Part shown: in pieces, positions 1 to 9,780 of the stretch | How positions within the stretch are numbered: the stretch's first letter is position 1 | Layout: every line of letters starts with the position of its first letter | IMG/VR virus record: IMGVR_UViG_2700989535_000004 | Span: 1-9,780 of that record | Direction: 5' to 3' (one strand) | Origin: a virus | Taxonomy: Duplodnaviria; Heunggongvirae; Uroviricota; Caudoviricetes | Length of the DNA: 9,780 nucleotides | Notes under the pieces: model-generated | Seen by the model: the letters and a program-made list of their open reading frames with translations, nothing else | Told to the model about the DNA's origin: nothing | Database searches by the model: none | Program-made: the position numbers and the translations under genes

Positions 1-564
1 TCAACGACTGCGCTTAGCGTGGCGCTCCCAGTTTTCTTGCTTCGCCTGCGCCGTTTTACGTAGTGCGACGTAACACGCCCCGCTGCCGCCATGATGCGGT
101 AGCGCAGTGCAATATGCCTGAACATCATCAAATTCGGTCAGCCAGCGCGCCACATAGCTGCGGACAATATTGGCATGCGATTTATCATCCCGTCCTTTGC
201 CATGAATAATCAGCACGTTACGCAAACCATCAGCCATGGCTTGTTGAATGAAACTGAACATCATTTTGCGGCACTCTTCCACCGGCTGGCGCAAAAGATT
301 CAGGCTCGCCTGTTGCGGATATTTACCACTGCGCAGCTTATCCAGCACCCCATGTTGCAACCCTTCCCGCCGAAACTCCAGCGGCTGACTTAGTGGGATG
401 ATGTCGAGAAATCCGGTGGTGAGGAAATTATCAAGCTGCAGCGTGTCGATACGCTGCGGCGCACGTTGGTTACGCGTTGGATGCCAGTGGACATCGGTAG
501 CACGTTTCAGCGGCTGGACATCTTCCATGGCGTCAAGAAACAGCGATTTGTCGTCAAGGTTCAT
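1..564 (-). CDS. smrA: Smr-domain protein (SmrA/YdaL-like putative DNA endonuclease); host gene flanking the island
   Basis: Complete 187-aa ORF on the minus strand with stop at 1-3. Smr-type core motif (..NVLIIHGKGRDDKS..). The 187-aa length and the MNLDDKSLFLDAMEDV N-terminus match my recollection of E. coli SmrA rather than SmrB; not verified by search. Confidence 0.7.
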   Translation of the reverse strand: MNLDDKSLFLDAMEDVQPLKRATDVHWHPTRNQRAPQRIDTLQLDNFLTTGFLDIIPLSQPLEFRREGLQHGVLDKLRSGKYPQQASLNLLRQPVEECRKMMFSFIQQAMADGLRNVLIIHGKGRDDKSHANIVRSYVARWLTEFDDVQAYCTALPHHGGSGACYVALRKTAQAKQENWERHAKRSR

Positions 565-782
565 GTTACATCCTCCCGCAATTAAGAGCGCGATATGATA
601 ACCAGACCGGGTCGGTCCAACAACGTATTACCCAAAATTCCAGTAATAAGTTCCAAATATTGCCGATATTTTAAGCAAAATGCTTATGCATGATTATTCA
701 TTCACGATATTTATAATTAAATGCGCATAACTTATTGAATTTAACCAACAAACATCGCTGCAAATAACGTTAAAAATCGCAA

Positions 783-806
783 ATTAACTACACCATTAAC
801 TACACC
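783..806. repeat. Perfect tandem direct repeat, 2 x 12 bp (ATTAACTACACC)
   Basis: Read directly: attaactacacc at 783-794 and again at 795-806, in the AT-rich intergenic region upstream of the Smr gene. Confidence 0.9.
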
Positions 807-1296
807 GTTCGGTGCACTGTATGCAACAATGCGGAACAAATAGACACAAGCGACGGGCTATACCGTTATCATTTTCCGGCTATCCGCCATGAAGCTGGTG
901 GATGATCACGGATAAACCGTTATGGAAGTCCCCATATCGGCATCATGCCCACCAGCGAGATTAGTTATCTGGTTGCTGATGGGAGGCTGACGAACCTCGA
1001 TGCTAGGGTGCGCAAAACTAGTGAGACCTTTTTTCTCTGCAACAGGCCCATAATTCGCGTTTTCTTTGTCTGCCGTAAGGTGGGGGATTTTTGGCGGATC
1101 CAGCAATGGCGCGGATTTTGTGATTTTTTATAGATAGACCTCATCTATCAATCCCGTGCACACCTTCCCAAAAAAAGTTTTCGAACCTGCGGCGATGTGA
1201 ACAAGGGTAGGCGGGCGGTCCCATAAGCAATGAGGTGTAGGGATTTCTATCCCCCTGGGGGTATTAAACACCACCCGATTTAAATACCGTCTTTTT

Positions 1297-1332
1297 TGTC
1301 ACTGTGTGTCACTCTCCGTCACGGTATGTCAC
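1297..1332. repeat. Four (T/C)GTCAC motifs at exact 10-bp phasing; candidate protein-binding array at the left island edge
   Basis: tgtcac at 1297-1302, tgtcac at 1307-1312, cgtcac at 1317-1322, tgtcac at 1327-1332. The array lies immediately downstream of the last island ORF (stop at 1339). Confidence 0.8.
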
Positions 1333-1338
1333 CACAAG

Positions 1339-1620
1339 TTAACGTCGTAACCGTTCCGGCTTCTTCCAGTGGTAAGTAATTTTTTCTTTCTCTTGGTACA
1401 TCTGCACGCGGCGACGGTACGACAACATCTCCAGAACTCTGGTGCGTATGTTGCGCATATCCACGCCGTTAAGCTCGATACCGTCACGGCGCATCACCTC
1501 AGCAACAACACGCACATAATTTTCAGCGGTCACGCTGTCCGGCTGCGTGGCCTGTTCGTCAGCCTGCTGGCTGATTCCGGTAACGCGGCGGATTAATCGC
1601 AGTATTTCGGCTTCTGTCAT
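1339..1620 (-). CDS. Hypothetical protein (93 aa), last gene of the packaging operon
   Basis: ATG at 1618-1620 preceded by TGGGGGCACA (G-rich SD, 4-nt spacer); 73-bp gap after the Nu1-like gene. No recognisable similarity to lambda gpA, gpW or gpFII. Confidence 0.5.
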   Translation of the reverse strand: MTEAEILRLIRRVTGISQQADEQATQPDSVTAENYVRVVAEVMRRDGIELNGVDMRNIRTRVLEMLSYRRRVQMYQEKEKITYHWKKPERLRR

Positions 1621-1693
1621 TGTGCCCCCATCGCTCTGATAGCCTGGTGTCGTCAGGTCCTTCCTGGAATTATGGCCCGTTACGGGGCGGCGG

Positions 1694-2236
1694 TTACTCG
1701 CCTTTGTTCTGTAGCAACTTCTCAGGCGCGCTTCCGGTAGTTTCCATCAGGTAATCAGCCAGTATCTGTGGCAGGTTTTCGTCAAGTCTTGCACATGCGT
1801 TACATGCTTTGGCTATTTCCCTTTTTAGTTCATCCAGCATATACGGCCTTATATCGGGAAAGCGCCTTTGCATTGTGAGCGGGAGGCTGTCCATGATTGA
1901 TGAAATCTGACTCGCTAGTTTTGAAATCGCGTAGATGCAAAACTTTGTATCAATCACCTCGCCGCGTTCGCGCTCGTTTTTAAGTTCCTGCGCTTCCGCC
2001 TGGGCCGTCATTAATCTGATTCTTACGCGTAAAAGTTCATCATCATCAATCTCGCCTTTGTCGTTTGTAAGCTGGTTAATTGCATTGTTAACCCTATTGT
2101 CTATCACGCTAGCAACATCATAAAACGCCTCACGGCCTTTACGCTCAACGGGAGTTACTCCCCACTTGTCGAACGCTGTCGCACTTACGCGGCAGCTTTG
2201 CGCCATAGTTTTTTTGTTCATCAGGTGCGATTTCAT
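1694..2236 (-). CDS. Terminase small subunit, lambda Nu1 family
   Basis: Translation aligns along its length with lambda Nu1 as recalled (e.g. RLMTAQAEAQELKNERERGEVIDTKFCIYAISKLASQISSIMDSLPLTMQRRFP vs lambda RLTRAQADAQELKNARDSAEVVETAFCTFVLSRIAGEIASILDGLPLSVQRRFP). About 180 aa like Nu1. Start taken at ATG 2234-2236 (SD GTGGGGA, 5-nt spacer); ATG 2219-2221 (MNKK.., aligning with lambda MEVNKK) and GTG 2246-2248 are alternatives. Sits 134 bp downstream of cosN. Confidence 0.85.
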   Translation of the reverse strand: MKSHLMNKKTMAQSCRVSATAFDKWGVTPVERKGREAFYDVASVIDNRVNNAINQLTNDKGEIDDDELLRVRIRLMTAQAEAQELKNERERGEVIDTKFCIYAISKLASQISSIMDSLPLTMQRRFPDIRPYMLDELKREIAKACNACARLDENLPQILADYLMETTGSAPEKLLQNKGE

Positions 2237-2261
2237 CAATATCCCCACTTAGTTAAGGTTT

Positions 2262-2420
2262 CAGGTTGGTGTGTTGGTGTTATCTTTCCCTTTTTATTCA
2301 TAGAGATAGAGCGAAAAACAAAACCACCACCACCAACCCGAAAAGGCTCATAAATAGCGAAAATCCGCAAGGTCGCCGCCCCGTAGCCTGCCGGATCGCC
2401 GGAAAGGACCCGCCAGCCAG
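2262..2420 (-). other. Lambda-type cos site: cosQ-like flank (2382-2420), cosN (2370-2381) and a divergent cosB-like region (2262-2369)
   Basis: The minus strand reads CTGGCTGGCGGGTCCTTTCCGGCGATCCGGCAGGCTACG|GGGCGGCGACCT|TGCGGATTTTCGCTATTTATGA. The 12-nt block is the lambda cohesive end, and both flanks match the lambda right-end and left-end sequences as I recall them with only a few substitutions. After TATTTATGA the sequence diverges; the cosB-like region carries GGTTGGTGTGTTGGTG (2265-2280) and its inverted partner CCACCACCACCAACC (2324-2338) around an AT-rich core. Confidence 0.8.
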
Positions 2421-2437
2421 AACGGGCCCTAATTTCA

Positions 2438-2821
2438 TCAACCAATCAGCTTATAGCGACCATCCCGTGCATTGCGACGTACACGCTCAATCTTGAGGCA
2501 TAGCGCCGCATCTGGCTTTTTGGGGACAGGTACGCGGCAATATTCAGAAGCTCGAGGAATATTGTTTATCCAGTCGATCACTTCACTTAAATACCAGGCT
2601 TTACGCCCTTCCGTAACCTGTACGCGTTCGGGGAACTCTCCACGAGCCTCAAGGTTTAGCAATGTGCGACGGCTAAGGGTAGTAAGTTCCATCACCTGAT
2701 TCATATCAACAAGGCGTTCACTTAAACGCATTTTGTCAGCAATAGCCTTTAATTCCTCTACTGCTGGATCCGGATACATCATTTCGGCAATTGGCTTAAG
2801 GTCATTGTAATGATTCTGCAT
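2438..2821 (-). CDS. AlpA/Xis-family (HTH_17-like) DNA-binding protein, 127 aa
   Basis: ATG at 2819-2821 with SD AAGGGGGA (4-nt spacer). Central segment MELTTLSRRTLLNLEARGEFPERVQVTEGRKAWYLSEVIDWI has the AlpA/excisionase-type HTH pattern, with about 40 extra residues at the N-terminus and about 40 at the C-terminus. The stop lies directly next to cosQ. Confidence 0.6.
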   Translation of the reverse strand: MQNHYNDLKPIAEMMYPDPAVEELKAIADKMRLSERLVDMNQVMELTTLSRRTLLNLEARGEFPERVQVTEGRKAWYLSEVIDWINNIPRASEYCRVPVPKKPDAALCLKIERVRRNARDGRYKLIG

Positions 2822-2832
2822 TGTATCCCCCT

Positions 2833-3174
2833 TTACACACGAGCCAGCGGCTGAACAGAAATACCTGAGCCAACAAACGCGGCAACCTTTGCCGACAGTT
2901 CTCTTACAGACTCAGGCCAGTTCAGAGCATCAACATTTAAAACACCTGTCTTATAAACCTGTGCCTGTGTTTTTTTCGCTGTGTCGATTTGTACAGCGGA
3001 AACATAAACCGCTTTGCCTGCGCTCGTTCCATCCCATACCACTAGCGCACCAGTTGCATCTTCCTGCATCAGTGGCGTAAACGCAGGTATTACCCCTTTA
3101 TTGGCTGAAAATATCCCCAGCGTAGTAACCAGTGCTTCAGTGCCAGACATGAGTTCAGTGTAATGAGTAGCCAT
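2833..3174 (-). CDS. Head decoration protein, lambda gpD family
   Basis: 113 aa. Shares with lambda gpD as recalled: TPLM, LV(V/A)WDGT, YK(T/S)G, WPE and AF(V/A)G(S/T)(G/A)IS in the same order and spacing. ATG at 3172-3174 with SD AAGGGGGAG; starts 9 nt after the capsid gene stop. Confidence 0.85.
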   Translation of the reverse strand: MATHYTELMSGTEALVTTLGIFSANKGVIPAFTPLMQEDATGALVVWDGTSAGKAVYVSAVQIDTAKKTQAQVYKTGVLNVDALNWPESVRELSAKVAAFVGSGISVQPLARV

Positions 3175-3183
3175 TGCTCCCCC

Positions 3184-4230
3184 TTAGCCAATGCGAACGG
3201 TAACAAAACGATTGATGCGGGCCGGTATTGGCTGTGGTGCAGAGTGCGTTTGTACGTACTCAATAGCCGGATCACCAGGCACAATATAGTTTTTCGGTGC
3301 AAGTTCGGCTTTAGTCAGCCCCATTCGGGTTAGCTCCGGATCCTGAATACCGCCATAGGCGACAATCCCCTGAAGAGCCGTATTGCCAAGCACCATCAAA
3401 TCAGGATCAAGGAAATGTTTTTCAGTTCCGTCCTCGTCGGTATAACGTCCGCTGTAAACAACAATCGCAACATCGCCCATATACCCTTTAAAACTCACCG
3501 AATCACCAAGGTCTTTAAGGGCCGTTTCCAGTTCGGAATTAGAACCACGGCGGGTATCCAGAGCCTCTTTTATCGCTCTGAATGAACGGTATTTCTTCCA
3601 TACATTACCGCCCATAATGATGATATTAGTGACGCCCTCACTAAATTCTGCGTAGCTCTCAATATCATCATTTGGATCAAAAGTTTCTTTATCCTTACCT
3701 GACCACTCAGCACCGCCAGACTGCGTGATAATATTTTGTGGTTTTATATTCCAGTCCAGTTCATAACGTTCAATACCATCGCCCTCAATGATATTTTTCC
3801 CCGTTGTGATTGCCTGAACAGCAAGCCATTCAATACGTGCACGTATAGCTTTAGCCTGATTTACAATCGCCTGTTTAACTTTAATATTACGCGCCCCAAA
3901 AGCATTGTATTGTTCAGGTGATACACCAGCAGGGCGCACAGCTAACTTATTTGGATCAATGCTGCTTTTCGGTTTCATATAGCCAGGGCGAATTGTTTTT
4001 GATTCGTATCCCTCATCTCGTGAAACTTTACTGCCCACCATAGGAGAGCAAAACGCCGCGATCGGGATATTTGGATCGTCGATCGTATCAAGAATAATGT
4101 CTCTCGATTCAAACATTACCGAGCGAGTGAAAAACAAACTGGTAAACAACGCATTTAATTTTTTTTGCACATCTTCAGCATTAGCCATCTGCACAAGCTG
4201 TGTAGGCGAATATAAATCAACCATACTCAT
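3184..4230 (-). CDS. Major capsid protein, lambda gpE family
   Basis: Strong colinear similarity to lambda gpE as recalled (ITQSGGAEWSGKDKETFDPNDDIESYA.., DTRRGSNSELETALKDLG, GDVAIVVYSG, MVLGNT, with an MSM start like gpE). 348 aa from ATG 4228-4230 (SD AAAGAGG directly upstream); ATG 4222-4224 has better SD spacing. The six-frame ORF runs on to 4311 but that extension has no gpE counterpart. Confidence 0.9.
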   Translation of the reverse strand: MSMVDLYSPTQLVQMANAEDVQKKLNALFTSLFFTRSVMFESRDIILDTIDDPNIPIAAFCSPMVGSKVSRDEGYESKTIRPGYMKPKSSIDPNKLAVRPAGVSPEQYNAFGARNIKVKQAIVNQAKAIRARIEWLAVQAITTGKNIIEGDGIERYELDWNIKPQNIITQSGGAEWSGKDKETFDPNDDIESYAEFSEGVTNIIIMGGNVWKKYRSFRAIKEALDTRRGSNSELETALKDLGDSVSFKGYMGDVAIVVYSGRYTDEDGTEKHFLDPDLMVLGNTALQGIVAYGGIQDPELTRMGLTKAELAPKNYIVPGDPAIEYVQTHSAPQPIPARINRFVTVRIG

Positions 4231-4393
4231 CCTCTTTACATTCATTACAAATAATTGTGAATATATTCTATTACCGATGTCTGCTATGCGAATACATGCA
4301 ACCAAGTGCAATGTTGTATAAAATATGCCGTGACAACTTCAGTGCTGATAATTCGTGTTAATGTATTTACTTCCTTTGGTCGGGATTTATGTA

Positions 4394-4435
4394 GCATGCC
4401 GGAAAATCTATTTTTTTCCGGCATCTTTTTGTTTG
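4394..4435 (+). terminator. Stem-loop (11-bp stem) with a T-tract on the plus strand; terminator-like element between the SSB and capsid genes
   Basis: ATGCCGGAAAA (4396-4406) pairs with TTTTCCGGCAT (4414-4424), followed by CTTTTTGTTTG. The U-tract geometry is on the plus strand; on the coding minus strand the hairpin is preceded by an A-tract instead. Lies 16 bp beyond the SSB stop. Confidence 0.4.
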
Positions 4436-4441
4436 CAGAAT

Positions 4442-4864
4442 TTAAAACGGTATATTATCGCCGTACGGATCATCATTCCCCGACTGTTGTTTTGCCCTGT
4501 TCAGTGCGTCAGTGGCCTGCCCCTGCTGACCTTTTTTGCCGCCCGGTCGCGCCGTTCGCGCACTGATTACGCTGTCTGCGATAACCTGCCAGCCCCGCCG
4601 CGTTTCGCCGTTCTGGCCTGTCCACTGGCTTACCTGCATGTTACCCGCCACGCTCAGGAGTTCACCCTTGCGGTGCTTTGCCAGTGCTTCGGCCTGTCTG
4701 CCAAACGCCAGGACGGATAACCACATCGTCGCCGTTCCGTCATCTGCCTGGCTGCACGGAAGTGGGACCGCCATACTCGCCATCGTCATTTGTGTACCCT
4801 TGCTGGTGGTCTTTAACTGCGGGTCAGCCACCAGCCGCCCGTAAGCCGCTATCTGTGCTGTCAT
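4442..4864 (-). CDS. ssb: Single-stranded DNA-binding protein (SSB)
   Basis: 140 aa with an OB-fold-like N-terminal region (IAAYGRLVADPQ.., WLSVLAFGRQAEALAKHRKGELLSVAGNMQVSQWTGQNGETRRGWQVIADSV), a Gly/Gln-rich linker and an acidic tail ending DNIPF (compare SSB DDDIPF). Its ATG (4862-4864) overlaps the upstream stop as ATGA. Confidence 0.85.
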   Translation of the reverse strand: MTAQIAAYGRLVADPQLKTTSKGTQMTMASMAVPLPCSQADDGTATMWLSVLAFGRQAEALAKHRKGELLSVAGNMQVSQWTGQNGETRRGWQVIADSVISARTARPGGKKGQQGQATDALNRAKQQSGNDDPYGDNIPF

Positions 4865-5112
4865 GCTGTCTGCTCTCCGGTTTTAACGTTGATGGTTGTC
4901 ACCTGTTCCGCTTCGGCAATCTCCCGTTCTGTCAGTGTGGCAAAATTTGCCGCCGCCGTGGTCATGAATGCGCTTATCAGTTCGGGATGCGCTTTCGCGT
5001 ATCCTTCTCCGGCGTGGCGGTCTATCGTTCTGATTGCCACCTTTAAGGCGTGCTCTGTCATGTCTAATGCGCGATATTTTGGTGCTGTTTTATCTCTGCT
5101 TTTTCTGGTCAT
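4861..5112 (-). CDS. Hypothetical protein (83 aa), translationally coupled to ssb
   Basis: ATG at 5110-5112 directly abutting the iteron region; G-rich sequence upstream; stop overlaps the ssb start. No family recognised. Confidence 0.5.
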   Translation of the reverse strand: MTRKSRDKTAPKYRALDMTEHALKVAIRTIDRHAGEGYAKAHPELISAFMTTAAANFATLTEREIAEAEQVTTINVKTGEQTA

Positions 5113-5113
5113 T

Positions 5114-5316
5114 CCCCACTACCCCCCACTTTTTCGCCTCACTTTTTAAGCTCCCCACATGATTTCCAACCTTGTTTTTTTGTGATTCTAATATGTTGTT
5201 TTTCAATGTGTTTTTTATTCCTCACTTTTGAGCCTATATACAGATTGAAAAGTGAGGGGCGCGGTTGCTTTTTGTTCAGTTCCTGCTATCCCCTCACTTT
5301 TGCGCCTCACTTTTTA
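5114..5316. repeat. Iteron array flanking an AT-rich core: putative replication origin
   Basis: CC(C/T)CACTTTT(T) copies at 5124-5134, 5137-5147, 5219-5229, 5292-5301 and 5304-5315; partial copies at 5114-5120 and 5153-5160; one inverted copy (AAAAGTGAGGGG, 5247-5258). A T-rich core lies at 5161-5217. The array starts at the stop codon of the replicase gene. Confidence 0.65.
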
Positions 5317-6729
5317 CAGTGGGCGCACATCATCACCGTCAATAGCGATAACGCCGTCTCTTTCCAGCTTGTACAGCCAGCGCCGGAAGTTTTTCATCTC
5401 ATACCCCAGCTTTTTCATATCATCGCGCAACAACGGGATAGTGCATTTATCGCCGCGCTGTGTGCGTGACCGGATACAGCCCCATAGTGCGGCGTGATTC
5501 TCCGTCTTGTTTCCGGCCTCCTCGATGCGCTCCAGTTCAACGGGTGGGCGCGGCTTATCCACAACCACCAGCGACGTGATTAACTCCTTGTCAGCGTCGG
5601 TAAAAAGCTCCACCACACGTAAATCATATGCAGCCTCTTTCAGTTCCTCCGCGTCCTTCATTTTGGTGCAGGAGATAACCAGGGCCTCACTGTCCGCGCC
5701 TTCGCGGCGGATCCGGTACTCAGCGTCCAGAGATGCACGAAATGCACTGGAACCACGCGCCCCTTTTGTTTCATCCTTGCCGGAATGGTGAACCACCAGC
5801 ACCGTGGCCCCTGTGCGTCGTTTCAGTTCGTCACATCCACGGATAAACGCCCCCATATCCCGCGCGTCATTTTCATCATTACCGCCAAAGCAACGCGCCA
5901 GCGTATCCAGAATAATCATGCGTACCGGTTTACCCGTTTCCCGTTCAACCTGGCGGGATGCGATAACCATTTCATCAACATCAAACTGGGCTGCAGGAAA
6001 AATCGGGCGGGTTACCAGGTACAGATTTTTCACCCGTTCATCATTAACGATTTCCCATGCCTTGATACGGCGGGGGACACCAATGCCACCTTCACCGACA
6101 ACATACATCACCGAACCATGCGCCACCCTGCGACCTCCCCAGTGGCGACCCGTGGCAACATGACACGCCCAGGAACACGCGAGGAACGATTTATAGGAAC
6201 CGCTCGCGCCGTATGTGCTGCACAATGAATTAGCCGGAATCACGCCCTTAACGACATAATCAAGCTGTGTGTCGTACCCTGCAGATCCAATGCTCATTGG
6301 TAGCGTGGTTTTTCGCTGACTGTATTGCTCGTCAGTAAGTATTTCCCCGCGCTCTGCCTGTTCGCGGATCCGTTGCAGGTAGTCGTGCCAGTTCTCCAGC
6401 TTCTGACTGTGCATTCCCTCAGGGTAATAATTCGCATCCCGTACACCTGCCGCCGCCAGCTTTTGCCCGATGGCATTAATATTTGACGGCTTGATGTGGC
6501 CTGCCTTGTACAGTCGGACACAATAGCGACCATCGTCGATAATTTTCAGGCCTGCCAGTTCGTCAAGCTGGCTGTCTCCCAGCCATACAGGCGGAACATT
6601 GTCGCCAGCAAGTCGCCCGTCCTGCTCCTGCCATTGTTTCGCGTGCGCCCAGGCATCACTACCCGCAAAAATAATGACTTCGGTCATTTTGTCGTAAGGC
6701 TGTTTTTTTAAGTTCGGTGCGCTTTTCAT
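5314..6729 (-). CDS. Replication initiator, primase/helicase type, with RepA-like AAA_25 ATPase core
   Basis: 471 aa. Walker A-like GASGSYKSFLA (Tyr where Gly is usual), Walker B-like RMIILDT and a VLVVHHSGKDE motif typical of RepA/AAA_25 helicases. The N-terminal 170 aa may be a degenerate Toprim (EVIIFAGSDAW..LKIIDDG) and the C-terminal 100 aa a DNA-binding domain. ATG at 6727-6729 (SD AGGGG, 6-nt spacer) overlaps the upstream stop as ATGA. Confidence 0.8.
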   Translation of the reverse strand: MKSAPNLKKQPYDKMTEVIIFAGSDAWAHAKQWQEQDGRLAGDNVPPVWLGDSQLDELAGLKIIDDGRYCVRLYKAGHIKPSNINAIGQKLAAAGVRDANYYPEGMHSQKLENWHDYLQRIREQAERGEILTDEQYSQRKTTLPMSIGSAGYDTQLDYVVKGVIPANSLCSTYGASGSYKSFLACSWACHVATGRHWGGRRVAHGSVMYVVGEGGIGVPRRIKAWEIVNDERVKNLYLVTRPIFPAAQFDVDEMVIASRQVERETGKPVRMIILDTLARCFGGNDENDARDMGAFIRGCDELKRRTGATVLVVHHSGKDETKGARGSSAFRASLDAEYRIRREGADSEALVISCTKMKDAEELKEAAYDLRVVELFTDADKELITSLVVVDKPRPPVELERIEEAGNKTENHAALWGCIRSRTQRGDKCTIPLLRDDMKKLGYEMKNFRRWLYKLERDGVIAIDGDDVRPL

Positions 6730-7025
6730 TTCTTGCCCCTGAATCCGTTAATCATGGTTTTCAGCTTCTGGATGTTTGCCCGTGCCCTGGCGTTGCTGGT
6801 GGGCACGTTATGCGGCGCGGTCTGTACCAGAGAAAAATCACACCGGAACTGATAAACAGGCATCACGCAATCATATTCGTAACCTTCACGGCGGTAGATT
6901 ACGCGCCGTTCTTCCACGCCCTTAATCATTACCGTGCCGCCGTACTGGTCGCGGTAAATATCACCGCGCGTAAATTTAGGGTGAGTGTTGCCACTGGCAG
7001 TTAAGCCAGAATATTTAAGTTTCAT
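6726..7025 (-). CDS. Hypothetical protein (99 aa)
   Basis: ATG at 7023-7025 with SD GGAGA upstream; stop overlaps the replicase start. Tight operon context; no family recognised. Confidence 0.5.
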   Translation of the reverse strand: MKLKYSGLTASGNTHPKFTRGDIYRDQYGGTVMIKGVEERRVIYRREGYEYDCVMPVYQFRCDFSLVQTAPHNVPTSNARARANIQKLKTMINGFRGKK

Positions 7026-7030
7026 TATTT

Positions 7031-7264
7031 TTATTCTCCGGTGTGCTGTTCTTTATATCTGTCGTGCAATAGATCTATTTCTTGCAGTTCCATTATTACA
7101 GGCTCAAGAAGCGTTATTAATGCCGTGGCAATTCTTGATTTTTGTTTGTCGCATTCATTGTCGCCAAGTGTTTCAAGCCATATGCGCAATATTTCCAGCA
7201 TGTTTTCACTGTGAGAAAGTGCAAGAAATGCGCGGTCTATTGTTTCGTGGTAAATATCACGCAT
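7031..7264 (-). CDS. Hypothetical protein (77 aa)
   Basis: ATG at 7262-7264 with SD GAGGA (about 8-nt spacer); 5-nt gap to the next gene. No family recognised. Confidence 0.45.
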   Translation of the reverse strand: MRDIYHETIDRAFLALSHSENMLEILRIWLETLGDNECDKQKSRIATALITLLEPVIMELQEIDLLHDRYKEQHTGE

Positions 7265-7490
7265 GGCTTACATCCTCAGGAAATTTTCTTCTGTAACGCG
7301 CCTCTGCCACATATTCCGCATAATCGGCGGCGATATTCAGTACATCAAGCCCCGTTGATTTATATTCTCTCGTGGAAAGTAAGAAAAAAGCCGCTCTAAT
7401 AAGCTCTGGCATTGACGAAAGCGCATCAGCCGCATCATCAGGAACGCCGGAAAATTCCTGTTTCAGGGAATTAAAACGATCATCACGCAT
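7257..7490 (-). CDS. Hypothetical protein (77 aa); possibly the C-terminal half of a frameshifted gene
   Basis: ATG at 7488-7490 lies 2 nt downstream of a G9 tract on the coding strand, which could serve as a G-rich SD. The frame is closed 6 codons upstream of the ATG. See finding on the homopolymer. Confidence 0.4.
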   Translation of the reverse strand: MRDDRFNSLKQEFSGVPDDAADALSSMPELIRAAFFLLSTREYKSTGLDVLNIAADYAEYVAEARYRRKFPEDVSHA

Positions 7491-7723
7491 AACCCCCCCC
7501 CATTTTCACAATCAGCAATCAGGATGGCTTTGGCCTCATTCAGCGCCATATCCGCACTAAGTTGCATAACCGCCAGCGAATGAGGAACGAAAGCCCCGGC
7601 ATATTCTGTTTCACTGGTAGCGTGCTTATGCGCCCTGTCCGCGATAACAGAAATATCAATCAGCGCATCAATCAGTGTTTTGATTGCTTCGGCGGCTGCG
7701 TCCGGACGGGTGTTATTGCACAT
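7463..7723 (-). CDS. Hypothetical protein (86 aa); possibly the N-terminal half of a frameshifted gene
   Basis: ATG at 7721-7723 with SD AGGGGGT (5-nt spacer). The reading frame passes through the G9 tract (encoding GGG) and stops 28 nt later, overlapping the next ORF. Confidence 0.4.
   Translation of the reverse strand: MCNNTRPDAAAEAIKTLIDALIDISVIADRAHKHATSETEYAGAFVPHSLAVMQLSADMALNEAKAILIADCENGGGLCVMIVLIP
7493..7501 (-). repeat. Homopolymeric tract: C9 on the plus strand, G9 on the coding strand
   Basis: Read directly (aaCCCCCCCCCatttt). Sits exactly at the junction of two overlapping out-of-frame ORFs. Confidence 0.95.
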
Positions 7724-7919
7724 GGTGCACCCCCTGACGAATACGGGCGGCGAATACCATCACGCAGCCAGCCGGTGATTGCTGACGGGCTTCCTGTTCG
7801 CTGGTGGCCTCAATGGTAATCACGCGCGGTTGTGCCGTACTCAGGGCGATAAAACGCCAGATGTATTTATTCAGGTTGTGCGAGTCCCGCCCTTGCGGGT
7901 GTATGGTATGATTTCTCAT
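7713..7919 (-). CDS. Hypothetical protein (68 aa), first gene of the minus-strand operon
   Basis: ATG at 7917-7919 with SD GAGG (5-nt spacer). The six-frame ORF extends to a TTG at 8009, but that extension would cover the leader hairpin and has no RBS. Confidence 0.4.
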   Translation of the reverse strand: MRNHTIHPQGRDSHNLNKYIWRFIALSTAQPRVITIEATSEQEARQQSPAGCVMVFAARIRQGVHHVQ

Positions 7920-8017
7920 AGCAGCCTCGATAATCTTGCTATCGTTGGTGGTTAGACGCCCCGTATGTGTTTCCGGCACTGCGGGGCGTTGCTCTTTGTA
8001 TTTCAACAATTCTTTTG

Positions 8018-8096
8018 GTGTGTTTCATGTTATGAGCGCATGAAACACACGTCAAGGCTTTTTGTATTTCTTTTTTTGTGTATACTGAAACACACC
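8018..8096. promoter_or_regulatory. Divergent promoter/operator region: perfect 12-bp inverted repeat overlapping a minus-strand sigma70-like promoter, plus a third half-site at the plus-strand promoter
   Basis: GTGTGTTTCATG (8018-8029), 9-bp spacer, CATGAAACACAC (8039-8050). Minus-strand promoter: -35 TTGACG (revcomp of 8050-8055), 17-bp spacer, -10 TAACAT (revcomp of 8027-8032). Third half-site TGAAACACAC at 8086-8095 just downstream of a plus-strand -10-like TATACT (8081-8086). A fourth GTGTTTC lies at 7967-7973 inside a leader hairpin (ACGCCCCG 7956-7963 / CGGGGCGT 7982-7989). Confidence 0.5.
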
Positions 8097-8116
8097 GATG
8101 ATTAGGAGTTTCAGAA

Positions 8117-8422
8117 ATGGCAACGGCTAACAAAAACGCAAAATCACAACTGACAACTGTCAGAGTCCCACTAGATGTTATGCAAGGGATGGAATCCGTT
8201 AAGCTGGACGGCGAAAGCAATGCCGGATTTATCGTAACCGCCATGCGCGGAGAAATAGCCCGCCGCCAAGCAGAAGGCAGCGGAGAAAATCCCCTTGTGT
8301 CGTCACTGGATGCCCTGGCTAAGGTCGAACAAATCGGCATCAAAGCAGCGGAAGAAATCGGGCAGCTTGTCACCGTTGCACGCGAAGAACTCCAGCGTCG
8401 CAAGACCAAAGAACCAGAGTAA
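8117..8422 (+). CDS. Putative ribbon-helix-helix (RHH) DNA-binding protein, 101 aa; candidate island repressor
   Basis: Strong SD (TAGGAG, 8-nt spacer). N-terminal segment QLTTVRVPLDVMQGMESVKLDGESNAGFIVTAMRGEIARR fits a beta-strand/helix/helix RHH pattern. Operator-like repeats lie just upstream and an intrinsic terminator downstream on the same strand. Composition is A/E/K-rich, unlike the Ser/Arg/Cys-rich opposite-strand reading. Confidence 0.6.
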   Translation: MATANKNAKSQLTTVRVPLDVMQGMESVKLDGESNAGFIVTAMRGEIARRQAEGSGENPLVSSLDALAKVEQIGIKAAEEIGQLVTVAREELQRRKTKEPE

Positions 8423-8479
8423 TCACCATCAGCGCCGTGGTGTAAGGTATTACGGCGCATTGCTATGCAGGACAACACA

Positions 8480-8653
8480 ATGACCGATAAAGAATTGACC
8501 AAAACATTATCACCGGCACGGAAAAGACGGCGCAGAAAGATAGAGCATGAATCAGAAAGATTCGCGCCATGTGCTTTTGCTCTTGAGAAATTCCTTAAAG
8601 AGCACAGGAAAAAGCTCTCGTTGCAAACCTTGGAACGAACCAAATCTGACTGA
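8480..8653 (+). CDS. Small basic protein (57 aa), co-transcribed with the RHH gene
   Basis: ATG at 8480 with AGGA 7 nt upstream; the ORF-track start at 8465 has no SD. Contains an RKRRRRK block. Followed 80 bp later by an intrinsic terminator. Confidence 0.4.
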   Translation: MTDKELTKTLSPARKRRRRKIEHESERFAPCAFALEKFLKEHRKKLSLQTLERTKSD

Positions 8654-8732
8654 TCACATTGCCCACCAGCCGCAAATGTGGCATTGTTGGTGATGCTCAT
8701 GCGTTGGGGATAACGTGTAGCTTGTGTCGAGG

Positions 8733-8761
8733 GGCCACCGTAGCGGGTGGCCTTTGTTTTG
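8733..8761 (+). terminator. Rho-independent terminator of the plus-strand cassette
   Basis: GGCCACC (8733-8739), loop gtagcg, GGTGGCC (8746-8752), then TTTGTTTTG. The U-tract is on the plus strand only. Confidence 0.6.
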
Positions 8762-8763
8762 CC

Positions 8764-9129
8764 TGTTATCCGGCAATTGTGGCGCTTCGCCACACGGTTG
8801 ATATAATCCCACTGCTCAGATTCATTTTTTGCGCAGTAGGTTAATTGTTCACAAAGGCGCTCCGGCAACGGGGCGCTTTTTGTTTTTATTAGTTTGTAGA
8901 AACCTGACTCAGAGATAATGCTCATATTCTGATTGCCGTCAGGGGTGTAAGTTAAATTTACTCCCTTTTTATCATCAAACATCTGCAACGCTCTGGCGTT
9001 AACAATATTGGTTTCACTCCCTCCAGTAAGGCCGGAAATAACCGGAATAATTTCGGCAAAATTTTGCAGATTCTGTTTTTCAGGACGAACGAAGCCCCGC
9101 CCTTGTTCGGGAGAATATCCAGTATTCAT
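8764..9129 (-). CDS. Hypothetical protein with a possible Bro-N-like motif; 3' boundary undefined, possibly a truncated remnant
   Basis: ATG at 9127-9129 with only a weak SD. The segment PDGNQNMSIISESGFYKLIKTKSAP resembles the Bro-N core (GGKQ.MT.INESGLYSLI..S.KP), but the N-terminal Bro-N signature is not evident. The ORF formally continues without a stop to 7939, across the plus-strand terminator, cassette and promoter region; I list only the 5' part, ended at an arbitrary in-frame position. Confidence 0.3.
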
Positions 9130-9181
9130 GGTTAGATCTCTGTATTAGTGGATGGGTGGCGGCTGTGTGCCGCCAGCCTGA

Positions 9182-9370
9182 TTAGTGAACTGCCTCGCAG
9201 CTTTCCTTCCATGCCAGAACTTCGGATAAAGACCAGCCAACGGAACGACCGCCGAGCTTACGCCGTGATGGGAATTGTCCGGTTTTTTCCAGGCGGTACC
9301 GACATGAACGGCTCAGGCCTGTAAGTTGCTGACATTCTTTTTCACGTATAAAGCGATCTGTGCTTAACAC
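9182..9370 (-). CDS. alpA: AlpA-family transcriptional regulator / excision-associated HTH protein (62 aa)
   Basis: DRFIREKECQQLTGLSRSCRYRLEKTGQFPSRRKLGGRSVGWSLSEVLAWKE matches the AlpA/Vis-type HTH. Start taken at GTG 9368-9370, preceded by SD AAGGGGGA (3-nt spacer); the 118-aa ORF-track start at 9538 has no comparable RBS. Confidence 0.75.
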   Translation of the reverse strand: MLSTDRFIREKECQQLTGLSRSCRYRLEKTGQFPSRRKLGGRSVGWSLSEVLAWKESCEAVH

Positions 9371-9403
9371 AATTCCCCCTTTGATATTTCTTAAAGAGTT
9401 ATT

Positions 9404-9450
9404 TGGTGTCCTATTGTGTTGTGGTGCGTCGGATTGTGTCAGGGTGTTTA
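9404..9450. repeat. Five (T/G)GTGT(C/T)-type motifs at 10-bp phasing upstream of alpA
   Basis: TGGTGTC 9404-9410, TTGTGTT 9414-9420, GGTGCGTC 9423-9430, TTGTGTC 9434-9440, GGTGTTT 9444-9450. Confidence 0.7.
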
Positions 9451-9664
9451 TGGAATGGCAAACACTGGCGGCGGTCATTTTACAGAAGTGTGGTAATGAG
9501 AATAAAAACTCTTTTAATTCATTGTGGTGCAAAGGCATAAAATTCTGTTTTTACGCCTTTTTTACATGTTTTTAAGAGTGATTCGCCAATGTACAAAAAG
9601 CCAGTAAAACGACTGAAAATCAACTTTTTAGGGTGTCAGTCAGATGTTAATCAAGTTTGTTCCA

Positions 9665-9715
9665 GATTGTTCGCCGTTGTTCGTCGTGGTGTCTCGTTGT
9701 TTCACGTTGTGTCAG
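9665..9715. repeat. Five tandem 10-bp units ending in (C)GTTGT, with TTGTGTCAG
   Basis: Motifs (G/C)(A/G)T(T/G)GT at 9665, 9675, 9685, 9695 and 9705. The 9-mer TTGTGTCAG occurs at 9707-9715 and at 9434-9442; GGTGTCAG at 9632-9639. Confidence 0.7.
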
Positions 9716-9780
9716 TTCTAAAAAATCGCAAAAAAAATTATATTTCTCTGGCTATTGGCAGTGTGGTTACGTTTTTGTGA

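Follow-up and report, generated by a model that had tools for sequence, protein, structure and literature searches.

A probable packaging cassette with lambda-type cosQ and cosN, a private cosB and a Nu1-family small terminase in an Escherichia coli phage-inducible chromosomal island

The window analysed here, the whole 9,780-nucleotide stretch of the IMG/VR virus record IMGVR_UViG_2700989535_000004 (positions 1 to 9,780), is a phage-inducible chromosomal island (PICI) of approximately 10 kb flanked by abgR and smrA in Escherichia coli. A cos site and the adjoining gene for a small terminase (TerS) in this island probably form the packaging cassette of a PICI parasitising lambda-like phages, in which the island's own TerS and a private cosB are combined with the large terminase (TerL) of the helper. 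The sequences point to a system in which helper TerL would cut the island cos and island TerS would bind cosB.

The combination of conserved cosQ and cosN with a divergent cosB has already been published for E. coli PICIs (PMC6092414, PMC6739421, PMC9026076). An earlier, sequence-only reading of this DNA had described the region as the same cutter with a different address label. That description was supported by the joint exchange of cosB and TerS, by cohesive-end variants shared with prophages and by the lack of a linked TerL gene, but the design it proposed was not new. The general design is in the literature, this type of island has been catalogued, and the concept itself adds nothing new. 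What is new here is the conservation of cosB, its exclusive linkage to TerS, its absence from phages, the co-exchange of cosB and TerS, and the cohesive-end variants matching those of prophages.

The cos site, the private cosB and the island TerS

The cassette consists of the following features, with signed positions given relative to the cohesive end.

2405-2411, minus strand: cosQ heptamer GGGTCCT, -30 to -24; equal to lambda 48473-48479, with the same spacing to cosN
2368-2383, minus strand: cosN, the 12-nt cohesive end GGGCGGCGACCT at 2370-2381 with 2 bp on each side; 12/12 and 15/16 identical to lambda
2335-2412, minus strand: segment in common with lambdoid phage cos, -31 to +47, including the cosN-to-cosB spacer
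2314-2337, minus strand: putative proximal cosB block GTTGGTGGTGGTGGTTTTGTTTTT, +45 to +68, the R3 equivalent, with a (GGT)n core at +48 to +58
2280-2323, minus strand: AT-rich core between the repeat arms, +59 to +102, 27% GC, with T and A tracts
2260-2279, minus strand: putative distal cosB block CACCAACACACCAACCTGAA, +103 to +122, inverted relative to the proximal block; an R2-like element
1694-2236, minus strand: Nu1-family small terminase (TerS), 180 aa, starting 134 bp from the cohesive end; RefSeq 'terminase small subunit' WP_000835286.1

The reverse complement of 2335-2412 aligned without gaps with the lambda (J02459) cos junction from -31 to +47, and 69/78 positions were identical (28/31 upstream, 12/12 in the cohesive end and 29/35 downstream). 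This alignment was the check proposed for the earlier claim of a lambda cohesive end with near-identical flanks; the flanks indeed matched, and were somewhat longer than the approximately 25 nt that had been claimed. The cohesive end was present as a single exact copy within the window. A BLASTN search of 50,697 phage genomes found the cosQ-cosN segment of approximately 79 bp in phage genomes at 88-90% identity (E ~2e-21), and detected no match to the sequence downstream of it. The similarity to lambda stopped at +47, and lambda R3 (AAGGCGTTTCCGTTCT; lambda R sequences were taken from the supplement of PMC6092414) spans +49 to +64, in agreement with the earlier statement that the similarity ends where the R sites begin. 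Judged by this match, the island keeps those parts of cos that helper gpA (TerL) would read, namely cosN for nicking and cosQ for termination.

A lambda-type cosB with R3, R2 and R1 was not detected, as there was neither a GTTTCC nor a GGAAAC core and no alignment past +47; GGTGG and CACCA blocks were present instead. The (GGT)n core matched in position the R3 of lambda and that of N15, which lies at +48 to +59 (PMC4669245). The N15 R3 is a G/T triplet repeat, GAGGTTGTTGTT, at the same position as GGTGGTGGTGGT of the island, the units being (GTT)n in N15 versus (GGT)n in the island. The motifs GGTGGTGG and CACCAACC are putative cosB elements and candidate targets of TerS. Inverted blocks around an AT-rich core, as described in the sequence-only reading, were confirmed: the arms at 2259-2271 and 2331-2343, 59 nt apart, were complementary at 12 of 13 positions, which was reached in 2 of 1000 dinucleotide shuffles. 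The inverted TGGTG and CACCA cores were spaced by 58-61 bp, compared with 60 bp for the R3 and R2 cores of lambda, and the AT-rich core between them was partly conserved (e.g., TATCT and ATGAAT). The distal block precedes the start codon of terS by 24-43 bp, and, as terS begins at +146, an R1 would not fit.

The open reading frame (ORF) at 1694-2236 was assigned to the Nu1 family by both Pfam PF07471 (Phage_Nu1; 84.4 bits against a cut-off of 30, E 8.7e-24) and PHROG 57 (E 9e-53, residues 1-172), in line with the Nu1 homolog that had been recognised 134 bp downstream of the cohesive end. Aligned end to end (residues 6-166), the protein and lambda Nu1 were 37% identical; by domain, the identity was 41% for the DNA-binding part, 14% for the linker, 54% for the central domain and 40% for the last ~42 residues. 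The predicted recognition helix, TAFDKWGV, had one of eight residues in common with RTIQNWQE of lambda and was nearly the same as QAFDKWGV of N15. The nearest phage protein was N15 gp1 (47.6% identity), and no phage TerS with at least 60% identity was found among the 50,697 phage genomes. A protein scan of a genome-contig collection confirmed no relative of TerS. The island protein was short of ~11 residues in the helix-3 region (approximately lambda residues 48-58), a stretch that includes dimer-interface residues of the lambda DNA-binding domain and Y50. In lambda Nu1, Y50 is a site of mutations that escape Rpp, the packaging protein of other E. coli PICIs.

Conservation and natural exchange of the cassette

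The family was examined with an alignment of 63 distinct sequences from 80 IMG/VR loci (designated by L numbers below), IHE3034 and the window. Fifteen of the 16 columns of the distal block (+107 to +122) were invariant, the mean column conservation of the proximal block (+48 to +68) was 0.96, and cosQ was largely kept across the 63 variants. As a baseline, the third codon positions of the TerS gene showed a mean conservation of 0.84 (0.839) with 31% invariant, compared with 0.957 for positions 1 and 2. The cosB blocks are therefore kept above the neutral rate given by the third codon positions.

The order capsid, decoration, cos, TerS was found in all 80 IMG/VR loci, followed in most by a 93-aa ORF, and the module of capsid, decoration, AlpA-like protein, cos and TerS kept its order in more than 80 loci and across genera. 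No gpA/TerL homolog was found after TerS, either in the window or in the 80 related loci. A search starting from the motif alone gave 62 copies of the proximal block adjacent to cosN, of which 60 had TerS downstream and two were ended by a contig edge; no TerL was present within 3.5 kb of the 60 motif-defined loci. A further 28 copies of the motif without cosN were unrelated. The island cosB was absent from the 50,697 phage genomes. Of 5426 complete E. coli genomes, 969 (~18%) gave matches to the cassette, 761 of them covering at least 80% of the query, and the TerS ORF was intact in hundreds of genomes.

A deeper lineage in Enterobacter, Citrobacter and other Enterobacteriaceae had the same module, with TerS 54-57% identical to that of the island. 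The DNA-binding domain of these proteins was nearly invariant relative to the island TerS and the C-terminal third diverged, and their cos retained GGTGGTGGTGTTGTT at +51 to +65. The islands of this lineage were embedded in the capsid gene of lambdoid prophages. Many relatives of the island sit inside lambdoid prophages (L087-L090 and several of L017, L051-L059 and L077-L085), in keeping with a cutter shared with lambda-like phages. In L087-L090, the islands interrupt the major capsid gene E, with FI, FII, Z, U and V after it. Such prophage-embedded islands are reportedly the 'helper-embedded satellites' of the Williams laboratory.

The comparison of the window (2237-2445) with seven closely related islands (L095, L096, L098, L101, L104, L106 and L107) demonstrated a natural exchange of the cassette. 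These islands, with capsid, decoration and AlpA-like genes 94-99% identical to those of the window, had the same cosQ-cosN followed by a complete lambda cosB (R3, R2 and R1). In four of them (L096, L098, L104 and L106), the lambda cosB was accompanied by an island-borne Nu1, 72-73% identical to lambda Nu1, and in L104, the locus whose ORF was read out, the N-terminus of this Nu1 was that of lambda including the recognition helix. L095 and L107 had the lambda cosB and no TerS, and L101 ended at a contig edge. The breakpoint between the sibling islands was located at approximately +35. This exchange among nearly identical islands indicated that the type of cosB changes with the DNA-binding domain of TerS, and not with the rest of the island.

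The cohesive end itself varied on a constant cosB. The variants GGGCGTCAGGCG, GGGCGGCAGACG, GGGCGGAAGGCG, GGGCGGCTGACG, GGGCGTCGACCT and GGGCGACGACCT were seen in L061, L065-L068, L071, L077, L079-L086 and L091-L110. Among these, GGGCGTCAGGCG was common to TerS-type islands and to true prophages with normal lambda R sites (L092, L105 and L110), whose Nu1 and gpA were 98-100% identical to those of lambda; L097 had the same cos as these prophages, with the terminase genes lying outside the locus. As the variants of the islands matched those of lambda-like prophages, the cosN of the islands follows that of lambda-like phages, which is what would be expected if a lambda-like gpA is the nuclease. 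In one contig (L059), genes for a lambda-type Nu1 and for a gpA with 99% identity to that of lambda were within a few kb of the island module. The Nu1-A genes of L059 precede the island capsid gene by ~1 kb; an opposite-strand ORF of 533 aa has the length of the portal protein (gpB).

Packaging model, published systems and competing explanations

In the packaging route that we regard as probable, the island would replicate as concatemers after induction, and dimers of island TerS would occupy the R3-position (GGT)n block. TerS of the E. coli lineage would in addition bind the inverted CACCAACC approximately 60 bp away, across the AT-rich and possibly intrinsically bent spacer. The conserved central and C-terminal domains of TerS would then recruit helper TerL (gpA), which would nick cosN to generate GGGCGGCGACCT ends; the island DNA would be pumped into helper proheads until the next cosQ-cosN ended packaging. 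The TerS of the helper would probably be replaced, and not needed as a bridge, because the island TerS keeps the C-terminal region that Rpp proteins lack. By analogy, the island TerS is probably the cos-phage counterpart of the TerS strategy of Staphylococcus aureus pathogenicity islands (SaPIs). As summarised in bioRxiv 10.1101/2022.09.08.507074, the satellite small terminase TerS-S follows the same logic, pairing with the helper large terminase, which is thereby guided to a satellite-specific site. Packaging in SaPIs is of the headful pac type, with a TerS from an unrelated family and an additional inhibitor of phage TerS (Ppi), whereas the present island is cos-based with a cut site shared with the helper.

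The island resembled lambda in cosQ, the 12-nt end, the spacer from +13 to +47, the Pfam family of Nu1, the three-part layout of TerS and the R3-R2-like spacing of the repeats, but differed in lacking R3, R2, R1, an IHF consensus and an adjacent TerL gene. N15, unlike the island, has a single critical R3, another cohesive end (GGGCGGCGTCCG) and its own TerL after TerS. Some E. coli PICIs (IHE3034 and 18098) have been recorded as 'encode TerS' (PMC6092414). EcCIIHE3034 carried the same cosB blocks as the window and a TerS 86% identical, so that the window represents another member of the catalogued TerS type. The two islands differ in their att sites (cspD-clpS in EcCIIHE3034 versus abgR-smrA here), in the gene before cos (a 137-aa hypothetical protein instead of the AlpA-like gene) and in an inverted second cos (cos2), which is intact with a phage-type cosB in EcCIIHE3034 and truncated in the window. 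A description of the pairing of cosB with TerS was not found in the main text and the searched passages of the supplement of PMC6092414. Likewise, no experimental study of the packaging of TerS-type cos PICIs was found in the literature, most subscription journals being outside the coverage.

Several observations weigh against the proposed route. IHE3034 and 18098 did not transfer after mitomycin C induction of the native strains (PMC6092414), and TerS-type E. coli PICIs have no known helper for this reason. The AlphaFold model of TerS was of low confidence (mean predicted local distance difference test score (pLDDT) 64.6), and the top Foldseek matches, MerR-type winged helix-turn-helix proteins (GlnR and RacA), were non-significant (E 0.1-0.2). 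Residues 5-56 were modelled as helix 1, helix 2, a beta-hairpin and helix 3 at pLDDT 66-78; this would correspond to the expected winged-helix topology, a fold that the model is too weak to establish. Binding of the TerS C-terminus to lambda gpA is beyond what sequence can show, and an obligate heterodimer with helper TerS would also be compatible with the sequence. A match to the IHF consensus WATCAANNNNTTR was not found within 2 mismatches between +1 and +150, although the identical scan found I1 of lambda. Furthermore, the distal block was missing in the Enterobacter and Citrobacter lineage, indicating that a two-site, bend-dependent architecture is not general; the site at the R3 position is the robust element, and its inverted partner CACCAACC is lineage-specific. 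The bend site that the sequence-only reading had assigned to the AT-rich core is therefore not endorsed, and an intrinsic bend from the A/T tracts of the spacer is possible.

The published alternative to a self-sufficient TerS is the Rpp system. EcCICFT073 has lambda-like cosQ and cosN with a 'completely divergent' cosB and is packaged by lambda and phi80; its RppA forms a heterocomplex with phage TerS that recognises the island cosB (PMC6092414, PMC6739421). Rpp proteins, of 139-154 aa and without a TerL-binding tail, have been argued to need phage TerS as a bridge, and an 'R3-PICI' at +48 to +65 has been described for the Rpp type, four islands having the same 9-mer at +55 to +63 (PMC9026076). 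The Rpp islands (EcCICFT073 and those with RppB, RppC and RppG) belong to the same family as the present island, with the same order of capsid E, decoration, ORF, cos, packaging protein and 93-aa ORF, and likewise have lambda-like cosQ and cosN with a private cosB from approximately +35. Their cosB contains a single ACCACCACC at +55 to +63, in contrast to the (GGT)n at +48 to +58 and the inverted distal block found here. The Rpp-type ACCACCACC (EcCICFT073 cos1, L005 ~10613-10621) is the reverse complement of GGTGGTGGT of the island (within 2324-2334, +48 to +58). The same duplex motif is thus present in Rpp-type and TerS-type PICIs in opposite orientations and a few bp apart in cos coordinates.

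These similarities raised the question of whether the island TerS acts in the manner of Rpp, by hetero-oligomerising with helper Nu1, blocking phage cosB and redirecting the complex, with helper TerS being required. Such a mode is favoured by the position of terS in exactly the slot of rppA in EcCICFT073, between cos1 and the 93-aa ORF (as also in EcCIIHE3034), by the 54% identity of the central oligomerisation domain to lambda Nu1 and by the mirrored motif, a hint of related recognition. The protein itself is less easily reconciled with it. TerS is a 180-aa full-length Nu1 homolog whose C-terminus aligns to that of Nu1, whereas Rpp consists of a winged helix-turn-helix and a C-terminal coiled coil and lacks the TerL-binding tail (PMC9026076). 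No BLAST alignment between RppA and TerS was obtained at E up to 100, and a PDB sequence search with TerS returned neither the lambda Nu1 DNA-binding domain nor RppC, the sole match being a spurious ankyrin-repeat protein. The absence of the helix-3 residues, a stretch that in lambda includes dimer-interface residues and Y50, also argues against it, and we consider an Rpp-like mode unlikely. A reading of the inverted GGTGG/CACCA blocks as operators of a terS regulator, for example the adjoining AlpA-family protein, and not as TerS sites, is more improbable still. The gene for this DNA-binding protein abuts cos, inverted repeats upstream of genes are typical operators, and the distal block lies upstream of terS. 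A promoter scan of 1600-2900 found no sigma-70-like promoter, which weakens the operator reading and does not kill it; moreover, the distance of the proximal block from cosN is that of R3 in lambda and N15, and the blocks follow the type of TerS. Islands with a 96-99% identical AlpA-like protein carried the lambda cosB, and IHE3034-type islands kept the blocks without the AlpA-like gene.

It is very improbable that cos and terS are inert, decaying remnants of a lambdoid or N15-like prophage. The truncation of the adjoining cos2 and the failure of the TerS-type PICIs of 2018 to transfer would fit decay, but not the intact ORF in hundreds of genomes, the presence of the cassette in nearly a fifth of the complete E. 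coli genomes, the stronger conservation of codon positions 1 and 2 than of position 3, the non-coding cosB blocks above the third-position baseline, or the module order kept across genera. We propose only tentatively an extension of the packaging route with helper TerL and island TerS, namely that it is a distinct hijacking strategy without helper TerS, that cosQ-cosN to +35 is a recombination joint exchanging at least four address cassettes, and that the Rpp and TerS addresses are of common origin. The four cassettes would be the N15-like TerS with the (GGT)n cosB, the lambda-like Nu1 with the lambda cosB, the lambda cosB alone, and Rpp with an (ACC)n cosB; the common origin is suggested by the mirror-image (GGT)n and (ACC)n at the R3 position.

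The surrounding island and the significance of the cassette

The queried cassette was a 100% match to the chromosome of E. coli KSC1031. Based on the RefSeq annotation of KSC1031, Pfam and PHROG, the island genes were arranged in the order integrase, helix-turn-helix/AlpA, YlcI, Icd-like, DUF4222, RepA-type helicase, SSB, lambda-E-type capsid, lambda-D-type decoration, second AlpA-family protein, cos, TerS and 93-aa ORF, all on the minus strand of the window except for the YlcI/YnfO gene. The island showed the properties by which Gram-negative PICIs were defined (Fillol-Salom 2018), with a size in the range of 10-20 kb, one gene direction, an int-alpA-replication module and its own att site, and without tail or lysis genes (RefSeq of the 100% identical KSC1031 locus, Pfam). 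The abgR(lysR)-smrA site is catalogued as the att site of the PICI EcCIEC2733.1 in Table S1 of PMC6092414. The window was not EcCIEC2733.1 itself despite the common att site, as the latter encodes RppC; the present island is a sibling with another packaging gene. Assignment to the capsid-forming PICIs (cf-PICIs) was also rejected, since only capsid and decoration genes were present, without portal, protease or TerL.

Neighbouring features of the cassette and of the rest of the island were as follows.

2438-2821, minus strand: AlpA-family DNA-binding protein, 127 aa, directly upstream of cos; Pfam Phage_AlpA 1.4e-8, PDB 8c3t 1.6e-10, PHROG 2790
1650-1692, plus strand: truncated inverted second cos (cos2), cosQ-like GGTCCTT, then GTTACG/GGGCGGCG, fused to the 3' end of terS
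1339-1620, minus strand: 93-aa ORF, PHROG 1561, uncharacterised
7939-9129, minus strand: 396-aa ORF, without RefSeq annotation at the identical locus

The AlpA-like region of the 127-aa protein comprised residues 35-95, and the gene is additional to the alpA-like helix-turn-helix gene near the integrase; the corresponding slot in IHE3034- and CFT073-type islands is occupied by the unrelated 137-aa hypothetical protein. The truncated cos2 abuts the terS stop codon at 1694 and is a neighbour of the packaging cassette, not part of it. It aligned with the complete cos2 of EcCIIHE3034 up to the eighth base of the cohesive end, and the cosB part beyond was missing. The complete cos2 is located at the corresponding place in EcCIIHE3034 and EcCICFT073, followed by a cosB resembling that of the CFT073 prophage phi4 (ATGTCGGTACTTCTCG...). 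TerS-type and Rpp-type islands both have the 93-aa ORF after the packaging gene, and it was also present in some islands with the lambda cosB only. The 396-aa ORF overlaps the opposite-strand YlcI/YnfO gene at 8117-8422 and gave weak PHROG matches only, to anti-repressor (Ant/Bro-type) families at residues ~50-85, and no Pfam match. In IHE3034, the corresponding stretch carries the annotation of a partial BRO-N pseudogene.

Genes for virulence and for defence against phages are spread by PICIs, and which phage moves an island is decided by how it captures the helper packaging motor. To our knowledge, the Rpp route alone has been worked out so far in E. coli. The cassette described here would be an alternative to Rpp, with an entire small terminase supplied by the satellite. 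If the island TerS works without helper Nu1, it would provide a natural system for studying how a small terminase bound at R3 places gpA on cosN; the placement of gpA on cosN from a site at the R3 position is an open question raised by Murialdo and Feiss (PMC9026076). The naturally swapped cosB/TerS cassettes would offer ready specificity pairs, also for the engineering of packaging-specific delivery particles.

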